NCBI GenBank assembly: GCA_964352335.1
Contig: CAYGRO010000002.1
Span: 77,138-141,137 of the forward strand
Length of the DNA: 64,000 nt
Source: an uncultured Gammaproteobacteria bacterium
Lineage (GTDB): Bacteria; Patescibacteriota; Patescibacteriia; VMEV01; CAYQCH01
Reading direction: 5' to 3'
Below are positions 5,206 through 28,758 of this stretch, piece by piece (the first letter of the stretch is position 1; every line of letters starts with the position of its first letter). A program made the translations under genes and the position numbers. The notes under the pieces were generated by a model. That model saw nothing but the letters and a program-made list of their open reading frames with translations, ran no database searches and had not been told where the DNA came from.

Positions 5206-6081
5206 TTACGCCAGAACGGACTTGTGCATCAAGCTGGTTTTCATTTGCTTGAGGATTTTGGCGAGGTTTTCGGCAGTGCCGATCTCCACCCTCTCCTTTG
5301 ACTTGACCGCCGAAAGATCAAGCATTCTGTCAGAAGCATTACCAGGAGCAACACCAATGACCATCTTTCCCGTCTGCTCGCGAATGGTTTTGAGGAAGGT
5401 CACATCGCTCTCTGAGTCACCGAAGACATAGGAGCGCCTCCAGTCAATGGAAGTACCTCGTGAGTCAGCCCACTTAGTGAGCCGACGAAAGGCCCACTCG
5501 GCTGCAAGGTGCTTGCCGTAGCCCTCAGGAGAGATATCAGCAAGATTGCCTTCTTCCCCATGACTCACTTGAACCCGATGGCCACGGTTGAAGGTCTCAA
5601 CCGCCTCGCGAACCCTCTGAGAGAATTCAGGTGCGGCCTTCCCTGAACTAATCCCTGGGTTGACCAGGATGATGTTCACAACCTGATTCCCGCTTTCGAA
5701 TAGCGTGAGATCGTAGCGGCGAAGATGCTGCAGCAATTGCAGGCGATCCACATTGCACCAGAACGAGTCGTGGTACTGTTTATGGACGGTATGGCTATAG
5801 GACTTGAGGTCCACACAGACCGCCCCGGACTCGGCAAAATGCCAATTCCACGCAGAGCGACCGAGGACCGTATGCGCGATGTCATGAACTCGCCCCGCGG
5901 GCTTATTCGTAACGATCACCACGACAAAGTTGTGCTTGTCGTGCAATTCATCGAGCATCAGCCCGATCTGGTTCATGGACGCACGGTCCAATACCCGAGG
6001 CTTTGGCCAAGGGATAGGCTCGATCAACGTGCGATCGAGATCCATGAAAATGACTTTAACTGGTTTCATTTCACTCTTCAC
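5206..6081 (-). CDS. HAD-superfamily hydrolase, subfamily IIB (Cof-like sugar-phosphate phosphatase)
   Basis: Motif I FMDLDRTL, motif IV GDSESD...GVAPGNASD. GC content is distinctly higher than in neighbouring genes; the opposite-strand shadow ORFs are typical of a GC-rich insert. Confidence 0.55.
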   Translation of the reverse strand: MKSEMKPVKVIFMDLDRTLIEPIPWPKPRVLDRASMNQIGLMLDELHDKHNFVVVIVTNKPAGRVHDIAHTVLGRSAWNWHFAESGAVCVDLKSYSHTVHKQYHDSFWCNVDRLQLLQHLRRYDLTLFESGNQVVNIILVNPGISSGKAAPEFSQRVREAVETFNRGHRVQVSHGEEGNLADISPEGYGKHLAAEWAFRRLTKWADSRGTSIDWRRSYVFGDSESDVTFLKTIREQTGKMVIGVAPGNASDRMLDLSAVKSKERVEIGTAENLAKILKQMKTSLMHKSVLA

Positions 6082-8073: not shown

Positions 8074-9399
8074 CTAGGCCTTGGTAGGCAATGCGATGCG
8101 CCCTCTATAGGCAGTGGGAACCACTCCCTTTTCACAGGACATTCGCTCCCACACGGATTGCATGAGAGCTTGGTATTGCTGAACCGTTGGCGCCACCAGT
8201 TGAAAGTGGCACTGCTTCGGAAGCAGGGTCGTCACGAGAGGAATGACACCGTAAGGAGCATCCCCTCTGTAGATGAGGTCACCCAGAACGTTGATAACGC
8301 GCTCAAATGAGTGTACCACATCGGTCGTCGGCTTAAAGATGTTCAGCCCAGTACAGACTTCAGCGCCGAAGATGTTCTCGATCTGAGTCTTCACATGGTA
8401 GGCGTACCAACCATTAGTCAACCGGATATTCGCCTCCGTGATATGGACACATCCATCCGGCAGAATGAGCATGTCAACAGAAAGGCAGCCTTGAACCCCC
8501 TTGAGCATCAGAAGGTCCCCCAACCGAAGCGCCTTATCCCGAATACACGAGAAGACCTTTTCAGTCATGCACGAGCCCTCAGTTGGCCTGCTAAAGACCA
8601 GGTTGCCATAGGAGAGCGGCTTGCCATCCGCACCAGACCTGACCAGAAGCTGGTCAGAAGCACCGAGGAAGTGAACGTGTTGTCCCTCGATTTTTAGAAG
8701 AGCACCTACGGCGACATGGTCACCGAAGAAAGGCTCGACGAGAAGAGAGTTCTTTTCTCCATTCAGCTCGAGCCAGATCTCCTCTAGCCCTTGCTTGGGG
8801 TGAATGCACTGGCCGTCTGACGAAGCCTCGCCATCGATTCGGACCATGCACTCTTCGTGATCTTGGAGGATCACTTCGGCCTGGGACGCGAGCTCCGTGA
8901 ACGATCTAACGATGCAGTGAGGAGTGAAAAGATCATACTCCCCAGCTTCCTTAGCAAGCGCACGTTGGGTGATCTTGGAACCCAGCCCCCAAAGTGAGGG
9001 ATGGTTACTGACCACGTATTGAGCCCAAAACTCATCTTCAGTTGTCAGGCCGAGAAGCTCCGAGAGCAGATGAGCGATGCGAATTTCCCCATCGTTCTTA
9101 CCCGCCTCGAAGAATTCGACCTTGTAGCCGCGCTTGATGTACTCAGCGATCCTTCTCAAGGTCTTTTGACCTGGTTCACTGATCAAGGATTCCACAGGAT
9201 GATCACCACCGACCACCCAAATGTCTGTAGCACCAAGGTTCACAGACTTGAGCCAAGCAACTTGTGCTGCTGAACCACATTCTCCAGTCGATGTGACGAG
9301 AATTCCCGGAACAGCAATTGCCCGAAAGCTCAAACCACGAACCTTGGTTGACTCCAACCCAAGCCAAGAGCTCAGATCTGCAATTGTAATAACTTTCAC
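8074..9399 (-). CDS. ATP-grasp family ligase (pre-ATP-grasp N-domain + ATP-grasp), substrate unknown
   Basis: 441 aa, GC-rich. Assigned on an ATP-grasp-like overall pattern; I did not identify a named motif. A hairpin terminator lies downstream at ~8040-8070. Confidence 0.4.
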   Translation of the reverse strand: MKVITIADLSSWLGLESTKVRGLSFRAIAVPGILVTSTGECGSAAQVAWLKSVNLGATDIWVVGGDHPVESLISEPGQKTLRRIAEYIKRGYKVEFFEAGKNDGEIRIAHLLSELLGLTTEDEFWAQYVVSNHPSLWGLGSKITQRALAKEAGEYDLFTPHCIVRSFTELASQAEVILQDHEECMVRIDGEASSDGQCIHPKQGLEEIWLELNGEKNSLLVEPFFGDHVAVGALLKIEGQHVHFLGASDQLLVRSGADGKPLSYGNLVFSRPTEGSCMTEKVFSCIRDKALRLGDLLMLKGVQGCLSVDMLILPDGCVHITEANIRLTNGWYAYHVKTQIENIFGAEVCTGLNIFKPTTDVVHSFERVINVLGDLIYRGDAPYGVIPLVTTLLPKQCHFQLVAPTVQQYQALMQSVWERMSCEKGVVPTAYRGRIALPTKA

Positions 9400-9439
9400 C
9401 GTTACCTCTTTGTTTGTTACTATTTGTTTTAACTGTCAC

Positions 9440-9478
9440 GAAGGACAAAAAAAACCCGCTTTTTTAAGCGGGCAAAAT
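9440..9478 (-). terminator. Intrinsic terminator (minus strand)
   Basis: cccgctt...aagcggg hairpin followed on the minus strand by a T8 run. Confidence 0.5.
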
Positions 9479-9686
9479 ATGTAGATGTTTATGGAATTTA
9501 CATACTTAGCCCGTTTGAAAAACAAGCAATAATAAGGAAAGACATACTAATATGTCGTTGTTCAATAGCAATAGTATTCAATTGTTGTCGTTGCTCCTTT
9601 TTCATAAAAATCAGTATAAATCAATCAATTATGTTTTGTCAAAAAAAATTAACAAAGAAAAAACACCTCAAATGAGATGCTTTTTC

Positions 9687-9701
9687 TGGTTCCCAGACAG
9701 G
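9687..9701 (-). repeat. Direct repeat of the tRNA-Gln 3' end (last 15 nt: T-stem 3' strand + acceptor + CCA)
   Basis: tggttcccagacagg is identical to 9832-9846. It is immediately followed by the palindrome cctgcctatcggcagg (9702-9717). Confidence 0.7.
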
Positions 9702-10182
9702 CCTGCCTATCGGCAGGTAAAGATTCGCCGTCACCACAAAAAGGGTTAGGATCGATGAGCTTCTCATCCCTTATCGACAGATCTATTTTTAGACAAAGTA
9801 AAACGCTCATCAGATTGATGAACGCTTTACTTGGTTCCCAGACAGGGATTCGAACCCCGATTCCATGGACCAAAACCATGTGTCCTACCTTTAGACGATC
9901 TGGGAATAGATAATCTTCTTTTTTTCTTCGCGTCCGATACCGGACTTTAAATATAGTTCACGAGCACGCGCTTCATCTACAGTAGCAAACTCTTCTGTAT
10001 GAACTAGTTTTAAAGGACGGCATCCTTTTGTTGACCTCACTTTGCCATATGTATGATTTTTAAATCGTTTTTCTATATCGGATGTGCTACCAACATATGA
10101 CCAATTAGCTCTATTTTGTGATACTAAATATAGATAAAAGCCATAACAATTGTTAATGGACCCCTGCCTGCCGGCAGGCAGG
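9702..10182 (-). mobile_element. Candidate inserted element interrupting a second tRNA-Gln copy; carries an intact tRNA-Gln and a GIY-YIG ORF
   Basis: Bounded by hairpin-forming imperfect inverted termini: CCTGCCTGCCGGCAGGCAGG (10163-10182) and CCTGCCTATCGGCAGG (9702-9717). Flanked by the 5' (10183-10237) and 3' (9687-9701) fragments of a tRNA-Gln. No integrase or transposase is seen. Confidence 0.3.
9832..9905 (-). tRNA. tRNA-Gln (anticodon UUG), CCA encoded
   Basis: Manual fold: acceptor TCCCAGA/TCTGGGA (U1-A72), D-arm GTCT-AAAGGTA-GGAC, anticodon arm CATGG-TTTTGGT-CCATG (anticodon TTG), variable loop GAAT, T-arm CGGGG-TTCGAAT-CCCTG, discriminator A, CCA. Confidence 0.85.
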
Positions 10183-10190
10183 AAAACCAT
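9891..10190 (-). CDS. Small GIY-YIG nuclease family protein (YhbQ/YazA/UPF0213-like, ~99 aa)
   Basis: Motifs GFYLYLV...WSYVGSTSDIEKRFKNH...KLVHTEEF...EARARELYLK match the GIY-YIG catalytic domain. The N-terminal 11 codons (start codon included) are encoded by the tRNA 5' fragment plus palindrome; the 3' end overlaps the intact tRNA-Gln by 15 nt. Confidence 0.55.
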   Translation of the reverse strand: MVFLPAGRQGSINNCYGFYLYLVSQNRANWSYVGSTSDIEKRFKNHTYGKVRSTKGCRPLKLVHTEEFATVDEARARELYLKSGIGREEKKKIIYSQIV

Positions 10191-10237
10191 GTGTCCTACC
10201 CTTAGGGCTCACCTTACTCTGGGGAGACGATCTGGGA
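10183..10237 (-). pseudogene. 5' fragment of a second tRNA-Gln copy (positions 1-35) with a 24-nt replacement in the D-loop
   Basis: TCCCAGATCGTCT[CCCCAGAGTAAGGTGAGCCCTAAG]GGTAGGACACATGGTTTT is identical to the intact gene except that the D-loop AAA is replaced. It breaks after anticodon-loop position 35 into a 20-nt perfect palindrome. Confidence 0.55.
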
Positions 10238-10385
10238 ATATCTTCAGTGTCTCAGTGATAGATTATTTCAGTGATACTGAAATAGTGTAGCATTGAATCA
10301 ATGAACCTGAGACTAAACAAAAGCTGGCAAAGAATGCCGAGCTTTTGTGTAGTAATACTAGCGTATTTTCAGGTTTTTCGTCAAG

Positions 10386-11267
10386 CTAGTTTCGTACTGG
10401 AATAACTGAATTATCCCCATCATTTAGAACGATTGTAGGAGTAATTCCTTTTTCTGTTAAGACGATTTTAGCATTTCTGCTTAAACTTTCTTGAGTTACT
10501 TCTAATGCTTTGAATTTTTGTGAATTAGCTTTAAATGTTTCTTCTACAGCTTTATTCACCTCACGTACAGCTTGCGCTTTGGCAATAGCTTCTAATCGAA
10601 TAGATTCTGCTCTACCAGTCGCTCGTTCAATTTGAGATGTTTTATCTGCTTCAGCTTCAATAATACGTGATTCAGAAATTTGTCTTACAGATTCTTTTTC
10701 AGCTTGTGCTGCTGTAATTTTTGCTTCCTTTTCACGCTCAGCAGTTACAACTTGATCCATAGCATGTTGCACAGATTGAGATGGGTGAACATCTTGTAAT
10801 TCAACACGTAAAATATCAATTCCCCATTCTTCTGTTTGTGAGTCTAATTCCGCTTCAATTCTTTGGTTAATTGTATGACGTTGAGCATTTACTTCAACGA
10901 ATTGTAATTCACCAATAATAGATCGAAGTGTTGTTTGTGCTAATGAAGGAATAGCTGAGAAAAAGCTATCAATATTATAAACAGCTTTCATTGCATCTTT
11001 AATTCTATAGTAAACAACGGCATCAATTTGCAAATTTAAGTTATCTTTTGTGATAACAGATTGTTTTGGTACATCTTGCCGAATTTCAGTCATTGGCACA
11101 CTTCGAGCCTTGTCGATAAATGGAATAATCCATTTTAAACCTTGGTCAATTGTTCGATGGTACTTCCCTAATCGTTCAACCAATCGAACTTCGATCGGAC
11201 GAACAACACGAAAACCGAGAACTGTAATAAAAAGAACCACGAGTAATAAGAAAACTAAACCACCCAT
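10386..11267 (-). CDS. SPFH/band-7 (stomatin/prohibitin-like) membrane protein
   Basis: N-terminal TM, SPFH-like core, C-terminal coiled-coil region rich in A/E/K. A terminator hairpin lies downstream at ~10318-10350. Confidence 0.65.
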   Translation of the reverse strand: MGGLVFLLLVVLFITVLGFRVVRPIEVRLVERLGKYHRTIDQGLKWIIPFIDKARSVPMTEIRQDVPKQSVITKDNLNLQIDAVVYYRIKDAMKAVYNIDSFFSAIPSLAQTTLRSIIGELQFVEVNAQRHTINQRIEAELDSQTEEWGIDILRVELQDVHPSQSVQHAMDQVVTAEREKEAKITAAQAEKESVRQISESRIIEAEADKTSQIERATGRAESIRLEAIAKAQAVREVNKAVEETFKANSQKFKALEVTQESLSRNAKIVLTEKGITPTIVLNDGDNSVIPVRN

Positions 11268-28301: not shown

Positions 28302-28758
28302 GGCTCAGGTTGGCAATAAGCCGAATTTTGTCCCCATCTTCGCATGAAGCTTAGATGGGTGATGATTATCTATCTAGCCCTGCAATTGCTTGCAGGATCG
28401 AGCGCACTACCAAATTTGCACTTGCACCAGGTAGGGTTTACCACCAATACCGCTCACACGGCATGGACAGATGTAGCAGTCAACGCATTAGCTTTTAGGG
28501 CTAAAAAGATGTTAAAGACATCATCTGACTTTTCACGTTTCAATTTGCGCAGCAAATCAATCCCGAGCTTTGCCGAGGGATACCCTTCGACAAGCTCAGG
28601 GTAGCTTTGCTACGCAAACCTAGTATAGTCTCTGTGGCACTGGCCCTAGGTTACCCTTGGTTCCATTTCGGAACTACCTTTTTTATGGTGTTCGGACTTT
28701 CCTCCTGTTTTGAGCTAAAAATAGCAAAAAAACAGGCAATCATCTAGCTAACCTGAGA
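28302..28758 (-). ncRNA. rnpB: RNase P RNA (rnpB), bacterial type A-like
   Basis: The minus-strand reading contains P4 5' strand GGAGGAAAGTCCGAACACC (cf. AGGAAAGTCCGGGCUCC) and 3' P4 GGGGACAAAATTCGGCTTATTGCC (cf. ACAGAACCCGGCUUA). GTAAACCCTACCTGGTGCAAG matches the GGUAAACNCCACCYGGAGCAAG region. P1 pairing CTCAGGTT/AACCTGAG; P3 hairpin CCTGTTTT...AAAACAGG. Confidence 0.8.

Follow-up and report, generated by a model that had tools for sequence, protein, structure and literature searches.

The 64,000-nucleotide stretch of contig CAYGRO010000002.1 presented above, referred to hereafter as the window, carries on its minus strand a tRNA-Gln locus that represents an insertion polymorphism: remnants of a native tRNA-Gln gene enclose about 480 bp of DNA with a small GIY-YIG nuclease gene and a complete second tRNA-Gln. 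The family to which this insertion belongs is widespread, is under selection and tracks the isotype of the tRNA. On balance, and with a mechanism that we infer, we lean towards reading the locus as the outcome of an invasion of a native tRNA-Gln gene by a homing-like selfish element of very small size. This element would comprise a gene for a nuclease of ~84 aa, abutting the 5' end of a tRNA gene and stopping inside it, plus a partial copy of the tRNA across the open reading frame (ORF), in all ~300 bp. The partial copy is disabled by a 20-bp palindrome, CCTGCCTGCCGGCAGGCAGG.

Presence and absence of an insertion at tRNA-Gln

Close relatives were found through the neighbouring SPFH protein, and their contigs were fetched and compared (loci other than that of the window are designated by L and a number). 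In the closest relative found, L123, whose SPFH protein is 95% identical, the same FtsX-SPFH-spacer order is followed by one intact tRNA-Gln, that is, by the empty site for which the initial annotation of the window had proposed to look. The start of this tRNA-Gln is the exact start of the 5' fragment in the window, and the two genomes share 86% identity across 95 nt of the upstream spacer. Three further relatives (L119, L120 and L122, with SPFH proteins 86% identical) carry a different insertion at the same tRNA-Gln, in the order tRNA nt 1-10, a variant of the palindrome, nt 11-19, a divergent GIY-YIG gene with 68% nucleotide identity to that of the window, and an intact tRNA, the terminator after which is 91% identical to the one after the 3' fragment of the window. 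Since the start matches L123 and the terminator matches L119, the outer fragments in the window are the native gene in its native place. The comparison marks the DNA between the palindrome, here called HP20, and a degenerate copy of it, HP16 (10182..9702), as inserted, including a predicted working tRNA and a foreign terminator. Thus, the same tRNA-Gln is empty in L123, filled in the window and otherwise filled in L119. The closest nucleotide relative of the window ORF lies in another lineage (L004, 76%), which points to independent acquisitions.

The rearrangement itself, as first described, was confirmed by ARAGORN, Rfam, repeat finding and pattern search (Table 1), and lies far beyond chance; HP20 and HP16 are the sole matches to CCTGCC-N(0-12)-GGCAGG in 64 kb, with 0 expected (100 shuffles). 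The description of the interval as inserted DNA, in which a UPF0213-type GIY-YIG gene and a working tRNA-Gln are nested between the remnants of the original tRNA-Gln, also stands, as does the placement of the ORF stop codon within the intact tRNA: the final codons TCC CAG ATC GTC TAA are nt 1-15 of that tRNA, the stop TAA being nt 13-15. One detail had to be corrected, namely that the upstream fragment ends after position 35. It does not, as GGTCCAT (nt 36-42) resumes past HP20 and the palindrome is a precise insertion between U35 and G36. At the other end, weaker homology runs past the 3' remnant into the following terminator (repeat D2, 87% over 23 nt). The intact tRNA-Gln, which differs from the tRNA of the empty-site relative L123 by a single D-loop base, is by its sequence the working copy. 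The hairpin immediately 3' of it is considered non-native and imported with the insert, because it has no counterpart in L119 or L123, unlike the next terminator downstream. For the spacer that follows, no homologue was found among all fetched loci, and by analogy with mirror-image units in L064, L073 and L034 it is possibly a leftover of an older ORF-bearing unit. The homologue search likewise gave no close copy elsewhere of the 21-nt insert in the D-loop of the 5' remnant. The promoter-like site is predicted to be, probably, the driver of one transcript covering the fragment, the ORF and the tRNA. Between this site and the native tRNA start (10312-10353, minus strand) lies a hairpin, ACAAAAGCT...AGCTTTTGT, which is kept in L119 and L123 and could be the terminator of the SPFH gene or a leader structure.

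Table 1. Features of the tRNA-Gln locus in the window, from upstream to downstream in the direction of transcription, and related inserts in other genomes
Feature	Position	Strand	Basis or remark
Promoter-like site TTGACG-18-TAGTAT	10355..10384	-	Consensus scan; upstream of native tRNA-Gln position; conserved in L119 and L123
Native tRNA-Gln 5' remnant	10183..10237	-	Repeats D5 (100%) and D1 (96%)
tRNA-Gln nt 1-13	10237..10225	-	Part of 5' remnant
21-nt insert, start of D-loop	10224..10204	-	Unique to 5' remnant of the window
tRNA-Gln nt 14-35	10203..10183	-	Part of 5' remnant
Annotated 99-aa GIY-YIG ORF	10190..9891	-	Runs upstream through the palindrome
HP20, perfect 20-bp palindrome CCTGCCTGCCGGCAGGCAGG, (CCTG)2CC/GG(CAGG)2	10163..10182	.	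Inserted between tRNA U35 and G36
tRNA-Gln nt 36-42 (GGTCCAT)	10156..10162	-	Displaced copy resuming past HP20; read from sequence
GIY-YIG nuclease gene, UPF0213/Slx1-like	9891..10144	-	PF01541; canonical ATG at 10144
Intact CCA-encoding tRNA-Gln(UUG)	9832..9905	-	ARAGORN; Rfam tRNA, 59 bits
Terminator-like hairpin	9793..9835	-	Inverted repeat I3; immediately 3' of intact tRNA
75-nt spacer	9718..9792	-	Between imported terminator and HP16
HP16, degenerate palindrome copy CCTGCCGATAGGCAGG	9702..9717	.	T-loop/T-stem junction of native 3' remnant
Native tRNA-Gln 3' remnant, nt 62-76 including CCA	9687..9701	-	Repeat D2
Native tRNA-Gln terminator	9656..9687	-	Terminator scan; 91% identical over 34 nt to that of L119
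CCCGCC...GGCGGG inserts	L002 2860-2930; L003 2455-2495; L004 2465-2485; L005 2400-2450		Displaced tRNA-Gln copies

Repeats of 15-35 nt can mislead assemblers, a palindrome in the anticodon loop stands where bacterial tRNA introns occur, and two mutually complementary palindromes are reminiscent of the leaders of split tRNAs. Nevertheless, almost no credence is due here to an artefact of assembly, to a group I intron in the anticodon loop or to a split tRNA of archaeal type. A contig from a separate assembly (Logan ERR3534985) matches the locus over 2300 bases with 0 mismatches, which argues against misassembly, although its reads may be the same ones, and the architecture recurs in dozens of genomes, including those of isolates. 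An intron or split tRNA is contradicted by an intact tRNA that is complete by itself and by fragments that together are without tRNA nt 43-61. When positions 9300-10500 were scanned against Rfam at E values up to 10, tRNA alone was returned and no intron or ribozyme, so that a group I intron or other structured RNA was rejected; an archaeal split tRNA or bulge-helix-bulge intron was rejected on account of the bacterial (Patescibacteria) context, halves that do not sum to a tRNA and an insert at 35/36 instead of 37/38. The initial annotation was therefore right that neither a classic integrase island (no integrase is present) nor an intron accounts for the locus, and a split tRNA can be added to this list.

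A minimal GIY-YIG nuclease

The GIY-YIG ORF of the window matches PF01541 with E values of 1e-12 to 1e-13 (Pfam). In the alignment of its homologues, Y, YVG, R42, H46 and E78 are invariant, and the predicted model shows the secondary-structure order expected for the beta-beta-alpha-alpha-beta-alpha core of GIY-YIG proteins. The homologues, 81-119 aa long and typically ~84-86 aa, comprise the catalytic domain alone, with no C-terminal DNA-binding domain. They begin with M-x-x-x-V-Y-I-L, a few codons past the palindrome, and end in S-x-I-V, which is encoded by the tRNA; this tail and a C-terminal LKSGIGRE motif are specific to this GIY-YIG subfamily. When the family profile was compared with the PDB, the best matches were the UPF0213 proteins BH0048 and EF2693 (1ZG2, UPF0213, 7e-10; 1YWL, 7.5e-9), followed by SLX1 (4e-4), with I-TevI marginal (0.52). 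The AlphaFold model (mean pLDDT 76.5) superposes on Slx1 at ~2 Å over ~75 columns, and Foldseek returned 1ZG2 and Slx1 with probability 1.00 and a root-mean-square deviation of ~2 Å, and I-TevI and UvrC with E values of ~1 or worse. By profile and predicted structure, the nuclease is a minimal member of a UPF0213/Slx1-like GIY-YIG clade, nearer Slx1 and UPF0213 than I-TevI or UvrC, and its predicted fold is that of structure-specific nucleases acting on branched DNA. The NCBIfam model TIGR01453, for group I intron endonucleases, scores 21 bits, below its cut-off of 56. Carriage by phages or plasmids and a role in defence were rejected, since the family has zero matches in PHROGs, in the PADLOC defence library, in INPHARED phages and in PLSDB plasmids. 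To our knowledge, UPF0213 proteins have no known function.

The canonical frame of the window gene, from the ATG at 10144, reads MAFIYI and then meets a stop, as one T is missing from the T-run at 10128..10126. Restoring this T gives MAFIYILVSQNRANWSYVGS..., which fits the family and has a slightly higher Pfam score. The missing T is taken as a mutation or a homopolymer error; programmed frameshifting was rejected, there being no slippery heptamer by inspection. The start codon and first codons of the 99-aa ORF, which the initial annotation had ascribed to the old tRNA fragment and the palindrome, are consequently a frameshift artefact: judged by reading frame, this start is a fortuitous upstream extension in another frame. 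The string LPAGRQG in the 99-aa product is the palindrome in translation, and the same string occurs at the N-termini of three database homologues. A different irregularity is seen in L017 (2229-2839), where an in-frame TGA stands at a variable position of the GIY-YIG gene and may point to a host in which TGA is a sense codon; this locus also has a second, divergent GIY-YIG copy directly upstream, and is a tRNA-Gln unit with the palindrome in the D-arm and a protein outside the Gln clade.

Ratios of dN/dS between pairs of nucleases (0.11-0.30) are indicative of purifying selection on the protein. Such constraint, together with the tight and conserved overlap of ORF and tRNA, would also suit a domesticated host factor that is co-transcribed with the tRNA and serves in locus maintenance, processing or defence, the duplications being mere by-products. 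A survey of GIY-YIG proteins from 2006 counts for this reading as well, as it describes a prokaryotic Slx1-like domain fused to a TrmH-like tRNA Gm18 methyltransferase (PMC1564403); the fusion hints, independently, at a connection of the clade with the tRNA D-loop, the site of most palindrome insertions. A host function is nonetheless highly improbable, given that presence varies among close relatives, that two relatives have different insertions at the same tRNA, that tandem arrays, frameshifted copies and ORF-less relics occur, that the phylogeny tracks tRNA type across phyla and that the PADLOC defence library gave zero matches.

The family and its palindrome across genomes

When one genome per species was scanned, 322 relatives were confirmed, of which 80 loci were read, giving with the window 81 loci and 95 ORF copies. 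The carriers are Patescibacteria and Bacteroidota, among them isolates of Algoriphagus, Ekhidna, Lutimonas, Aureibaculum and Daejeonella, plus a few metagenome-assembled genomes with other labels. A tRNA gene on the same strand follows within 400 nt downstream in 79 of the 95 ORF copies; the stop codon lies inside the tRNA in 45, typically at U8-A9-G10 or in the D-loop, and 0-30 nt ahead of it in 24, while a palindrome lies within 200 nt upstream in 75. The initial annotation had suggested searching for further palindromes and nuclease genes, and other copies of both do sit at tRNA genes; its view of tRNA-Gln as the specific target did not survive, as at least 10 isotypes are involved: Gln, Leu, Arg, Lys, Asn and Phe at the 81 loci, and Ser, Ala, Val and Met in loci found via the palindrome. 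Neighbour joining brings together nucleases that share a tRNA isotype, not those that share a host: one Leu clade mixes Bacteroidota and Patescibacteria, and the tree also has a clade for Gln, several for Arg and one for Lys and Asn together. Moreover, the displaced fragment may differ from the resident tRNA of the same isotype (for example in L038 and L040), which indicates import with the ORF.

Across these loci the essential tRNA stays intact through duplication, and the displaced copy takes up palindromes where the tRNA is unpaired and is afterwards eroded by deletions. The sequences flanking a palindrome (12 nt to the left, 8 nt to the right) are contiguous in the neighbouring tRNA, mostly with 0 mismatches, and the displaced copy carries one to three palindromes on whichever side of the ORF it lies. 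In L069 it is a full-length tRNA of 72 nt with three palindromes; other copies are truncated on the side facing the ORF, or have lost the segment between two palindromes (L059). Displaced copies of tRNA-Gln reach ~nt 45 in L001, ~nt 53 in L002 and ~nt 65 in L010. That the two fragments of the window do not sum to a tRNA, as had been remarked from the outset, is accordingly true of this locus but due to later deletions, full length or nearly so being kept in L069 and L010. The identical 20-mer occupies the same anticodon position in the tRNA-Gln relatives L003, L004, L005, L009 and L011, and the same 20-mer is found in other loops of other tRNAs.

Mirror-image units, in which an intact tRNA and an ORF are followed by a 5'-truncated copy with a palindrome and the native 3' flank, were seen in six loci, and palindromes in the T-loop of 3' tRNA remnants in L034, L073, L078, L082 and L158. 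Two or three units often stand in tandem, and relics without an ORF are likewise frequent. By analogy, the downstream relic in the window fits the mirror-image form, so that the window would combine an upstream unit, with its palindrome at 35/36, and the relic of a mirror-image downstream unit, with its palindrome in the T-loop. It is because of this combination that the window looks like a hairpin-ended unit, as it was initially described: its insert does sit between HP20 and HP16, but palindromes are not generally the termini of units family-wide.

This bears on a reading in which a dimeric nuclease cuts the palindromes at their CCGG centre and palindrome-bounded cassettes re-ligate into other cut palindromes. 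That GIY-YIG restriction enzymes cut short palindromes as dimers is established, and the two palindromes flanking the window insert, a palindrome nested in another and split near its centre in L002, and the deletion exactly between two palindromes in L059 would all be in keeping with it. It is quite unlikely all the same: most loci have a palindrome on one side of the ORF only, half-palindromes are absent from ORF borders, tRNA sequence carries on at both sides of each palindrome, and a native single-copy tRNA could not bear two palindromes before a replacement copy came.

Some variations on these units were noted in passing. Arrays of 3' tRNA fragments, each with a T-loop palindrome, lie downstream of the intact tRNA in L003 (2900-3260), L078 (3310-3400) and L082 (2840-2990), and the L003 array also has an inverted copy of the T-arm. 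In several genomes a second type of GC-rich palindromic insert, CCCGCC...GGCGGG, occurs in the D-loop region of displaced tRNA-Gln copies, at the place where the window has its 21-nt insert (L002 to L005, Table 1). Finally, L114 (380-900) has a GIY-YIG unit on tRNA-Asn, the downstream copy of which is interrupted by GC-rich sequence right after the anticodon. A group I intron at 35/36 has been reported for Patescibacteria tRNAs (PMC13011429); the L114 interruption resembles it, and two distinct invaders may share one tRNA gene.

The palindrome itself is very constant. It has the form (CCTG)2CC/GG(CAGG)2 in 70 of 78 copies from loci found through the protein, a few copies differing by one CCTG unit, and between pairs it stays 20/20 identical even at dS>1. 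Of its 53 distinct tRNA insertion contexts, which share ancestry and involve at least 10 separate positions, 21 fall within loops, 30 at junctions of loop and stem and 2 within stems, whereas a uniform model predicts 34% for loops, 16.5% for junctions and 49% for stems; the commonest junction is the 3' end of the D-loop, and insertion points were observed at tRNA positions 8/9, 13-15, 20-23, 32-35 and 54-61. A role of the palindrome as terminator, operator or 5'-UTR (untranslated region) element of the nuclease gene was rejected, since it tracks the side of the displaced tRNA copy; no T-run follows the window palindrome on either strand.

Beyond tRNA genes, the exact 20-mer is present in 35 IMG/VR stretches (L083-L117) and at least 120 metagenome stretches, far above chance; the metagenome contigs examined were L124-L203, and the GC content of the palindrome stretches ranges from 0.24 to 0.72. 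Of 53 palindrome sites in low-GC contigs, 46 fall between genes, and at 6 the palindrome is read in frame within a long ORF. Disruption of reading frames that splicing could restore was rejected, as 1 of the 53 low-GC sites fits it. Solo copies were also seen in the loop of a terminator (L002, 1732-1751), in a tRNA-like D-loop, in another palindrome or in a phage tRNA-Met. The last case is a 92-nt tRNA-Met(CAT) on a phage contig (L107, 2239-2330), the variable region of which contains the palindrome; a second copy is absent from the 700 nt around it, and the palindrome may be tolerated as an extra arm. That the palindrome always enters hairpin loops was considered and given up: it is true of the tRNA contexts and a few solo cases, and fails on 121 solo sites.

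Such solo copies invite the reading that two independent parasites meet at these loci, a nuclease cassette spreading via tRNA homology and a separate repeat moved by another activity, the palindrome being seen in displaced tRNA copies simply because these are dispensable and tolerant places. Most palindrome copies are indeed far from any GIY-YIG gene, in intergenic DNA, the terminator loop of L002, in-frame positions of long ORFs and the phage tRNA-Met, and some ORFs persist beside decayed palindromes (L013 and L014). We regard this reading as unlikely in view of the palindromes found upstream of so many nuclease copies (75/95), of up to three palindromes packed in one 72-nt displaced tRNA, and of the rarity of stem insertions (2/53 contexts), which mere tolerance in a dead copy would make common. 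In addition, no other gene family recurs near palindrome sites: in an all-against-all clustering of 2003 ORFs near solo palindromes, the GIY-YIG family was the only recurring non-structural gene family, and the search for another family mobilising the palindrome gave none save phage structural genes common to related contigs. The link between nuclease and palindrome is thus strong at tRNA genes and not proven in general.

As for the surroundings of the locus in the window, its flanking genes encode the SPFH protein and a 441-aa protein of no assigned family (8074-9399, minus strand), which lies just downstream and has no Pfam or NCBIfam match. The gene for the latter is preceded by a sub-threshold Trp-leader-like hairpin and a terminator (9446-9540), and, together with another gene (5206-6081, minus strand), has ~54% GC within a genome of 35% GC; both may have been horizontally acquired. 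Further away (28302-28755, minus strand), a bacterial class A RNase P RNA was found (168 bits), which probably carries inserts because it is 454 nt long against 367 positions of the model.

A proposed homing without an intron

According to the homing-like reading favoured here, a structure-specific nuclease, expressed by read-through from the tRNA promoter, would break tRNA genes at unpaired positions. Its substrate would be a folded, non-duplex form of the tRNA gene, such as an extruded or R-loop cloverleaf; cutting of a folded form is proposed because it fits heavy transcription and the Slx1-type fold. The break would be repaired from an allele bearing the element, the tRNA sequence on both sides serving as homology arms, and repair would copy palindrome and ORF to give a tandem partial duplication with one intact tRNA, repeated rounds leading to arrays. 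This process would amount to homing without an intron. The carried tRNA segments would set the choice of target, and isotype fidelity across phyla would thereby be explained. The palindrome would be a sequence-constrained companion module copied into the breaks and, by interrupting the direct repeats, might shield the ORF from recombinational deletion. One idea for its origin is that the same 12-nt tail could be copied onto both 3' ends of a break and that the two could then be joined via the self-complementary CCGG, an idea raised because it fits the absence of a spacer and the existence of variants a single unit apart. If nuclease and tRNA are transcribed together from the native promoter, the nuclease mRNA would form the leader of a tRNA precursor; where the stop codon lies inside the tRNA, cleavage by RNase P would strip it from the mRNA, a possible brake on expression.

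Several observations weigh against this reading. The intact tRNA beside the nuclease gene retains the presumed target, so that the self-immunity usual for homing endonucleases is inapplicable, and simple homing does not account for the way in which a new target is duplicated afresh, as it must be at each switch of isotype. The protein is an 84-aa domain without a DNA-binding module, neither a cleavage activity nor a target is known to us for nucleases of this clade, and the nuclease gene of the window is frameshifted. The tree was built by neighbour joining on ~80 residues. As regards the palindrome, 78 of 85 exact copies on metagenome contigs (~92%) have within 450 nt neither this nuclease nor a tRNA, flanking stems are not enriched at solo sites (121 sites against 4696 random positions, p=0.30), and no target-site duplication was found in general around solo palindromes; the preference for loops may thus hold for tRNA contexts alone, and nuclease and palindrome may be linked indirectly.

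A possible, if rather doubtful, alternative is a two-part, structure-directed mobile system of an undescribed kind, in which an Slx1-like nuclease resides at tRNA genes and a palindrome is copied into the breaks. The nuclease would cut unpaired positions of cloverleaf or cruciform DNA, there would be no target duplication, and duplication of the tRNA would spare the host. In that event (CCTG)2CC/GG(CAGG)2 would be the smallest known mobile DNA, spread unchanged across phyla and phage genomes.

Among known systems, the locus appears by analogy to work most like the intron-less homing of free-standing GIY-YIG genes such as SegB, located in the tRNA gene cluster of phage T4 (PMC2330249). As with the T4 Seg genes, an intron-less GIY-YIG gene among tRNA genes is variably present between relatives, and the Seg genes are thought to spread with their flanks by break-induced gene conversion. 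However, Seg proteins have 200-250 aa and DNA-binding domains, occur in phages, and involve neither duplication of the target nor an associated palindrome; unlike them and I-TevI, the protein of the element is a bare catalytic domain of ~84 aa, and no copy was found in phage or plasmid collections. Integrase islands and prophages also target tRNA genes, supply a replacement segment that keeps them functional and leave behind a direct repeat made of part of the tRNA, yet the element is without integrase and measures ~300 bp instead of kilobases, its duplicate is usually the 5' part of the tRNA and not the 3' end (a 15-nt 3'-end repeat does exist in the window), its displaced copy has a palindrome in a loop, and its ORF extends into the tRNA. 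REP/REPIN sequences and their RAYT genes share the short dispersed palindrome with copies beside a small nuclease-type gene, but RAYT is an HUH/Y1 enzyme and REPs are lineage-specific, whereas here a GIY-YIG protein goes with a 20-mer identical across phyla; compared with REP/RAYT, the association with tRNA genes is new, and that of the nuclease with the palindrome is not proven. Slx1 and UPF0213 proteins (YhbQ-type; PDB 1ZG2, 1YWL, 7CQ3 and 6SEH) have the same fold and the same catalytic motifs, and Slx1 cuts branched DNA, which fits insertion at unpaired positions, although Slx1 needs Slx4 and has a RING domain. Finally, the palindromic elements of Rickettsia and the GC clusters of yeast mitochondria are short GC-rich palindromes of AT-rich genomes that occur in RNA genes and in frame in proteins; unlike the element they are longer or restricted to a lineage and are without a dedicated adjacent nuclease gene. 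The arrangement is absent from the 2006 GIY-YIG survey (PMC1564403) and from a 2026 paper on Patescibacteria tRNA introns (PMC13011429), and a query of the full-text literature that included the palindrome string found it not described; subscription journals are mostly outside such a query, so that an earlier description is possible. Apparently, then, the unit is undescribed, and there is a real chance that its palindrome part is something categorically new.

If the reading as a homing-like element is true, the tRNA genes of two large phyla host one of the smallest autonomous selfish elements known, at ~300 bp, which survives by rebuilding the essential gene that it disrupts. It would also provide a first biological context for the large UPF0213/YhbQ branch of GIY-YIG proteins, would account for many of the tRNA fragments and peculiar short ORFs to which annotation pipelines give wrong labels, and would indicate gene flow between Patescibacteria and Bacteroidota. 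The identity of the palindrome despite synonymous saturation of the neighbouring coding sequence is an unusual constraint that calls for explanation, and cultivable carriers in Algoriphagus, Lutimonas, Ekhidna, Aureibaculum and Daejeonella make the mechanism directly testable.

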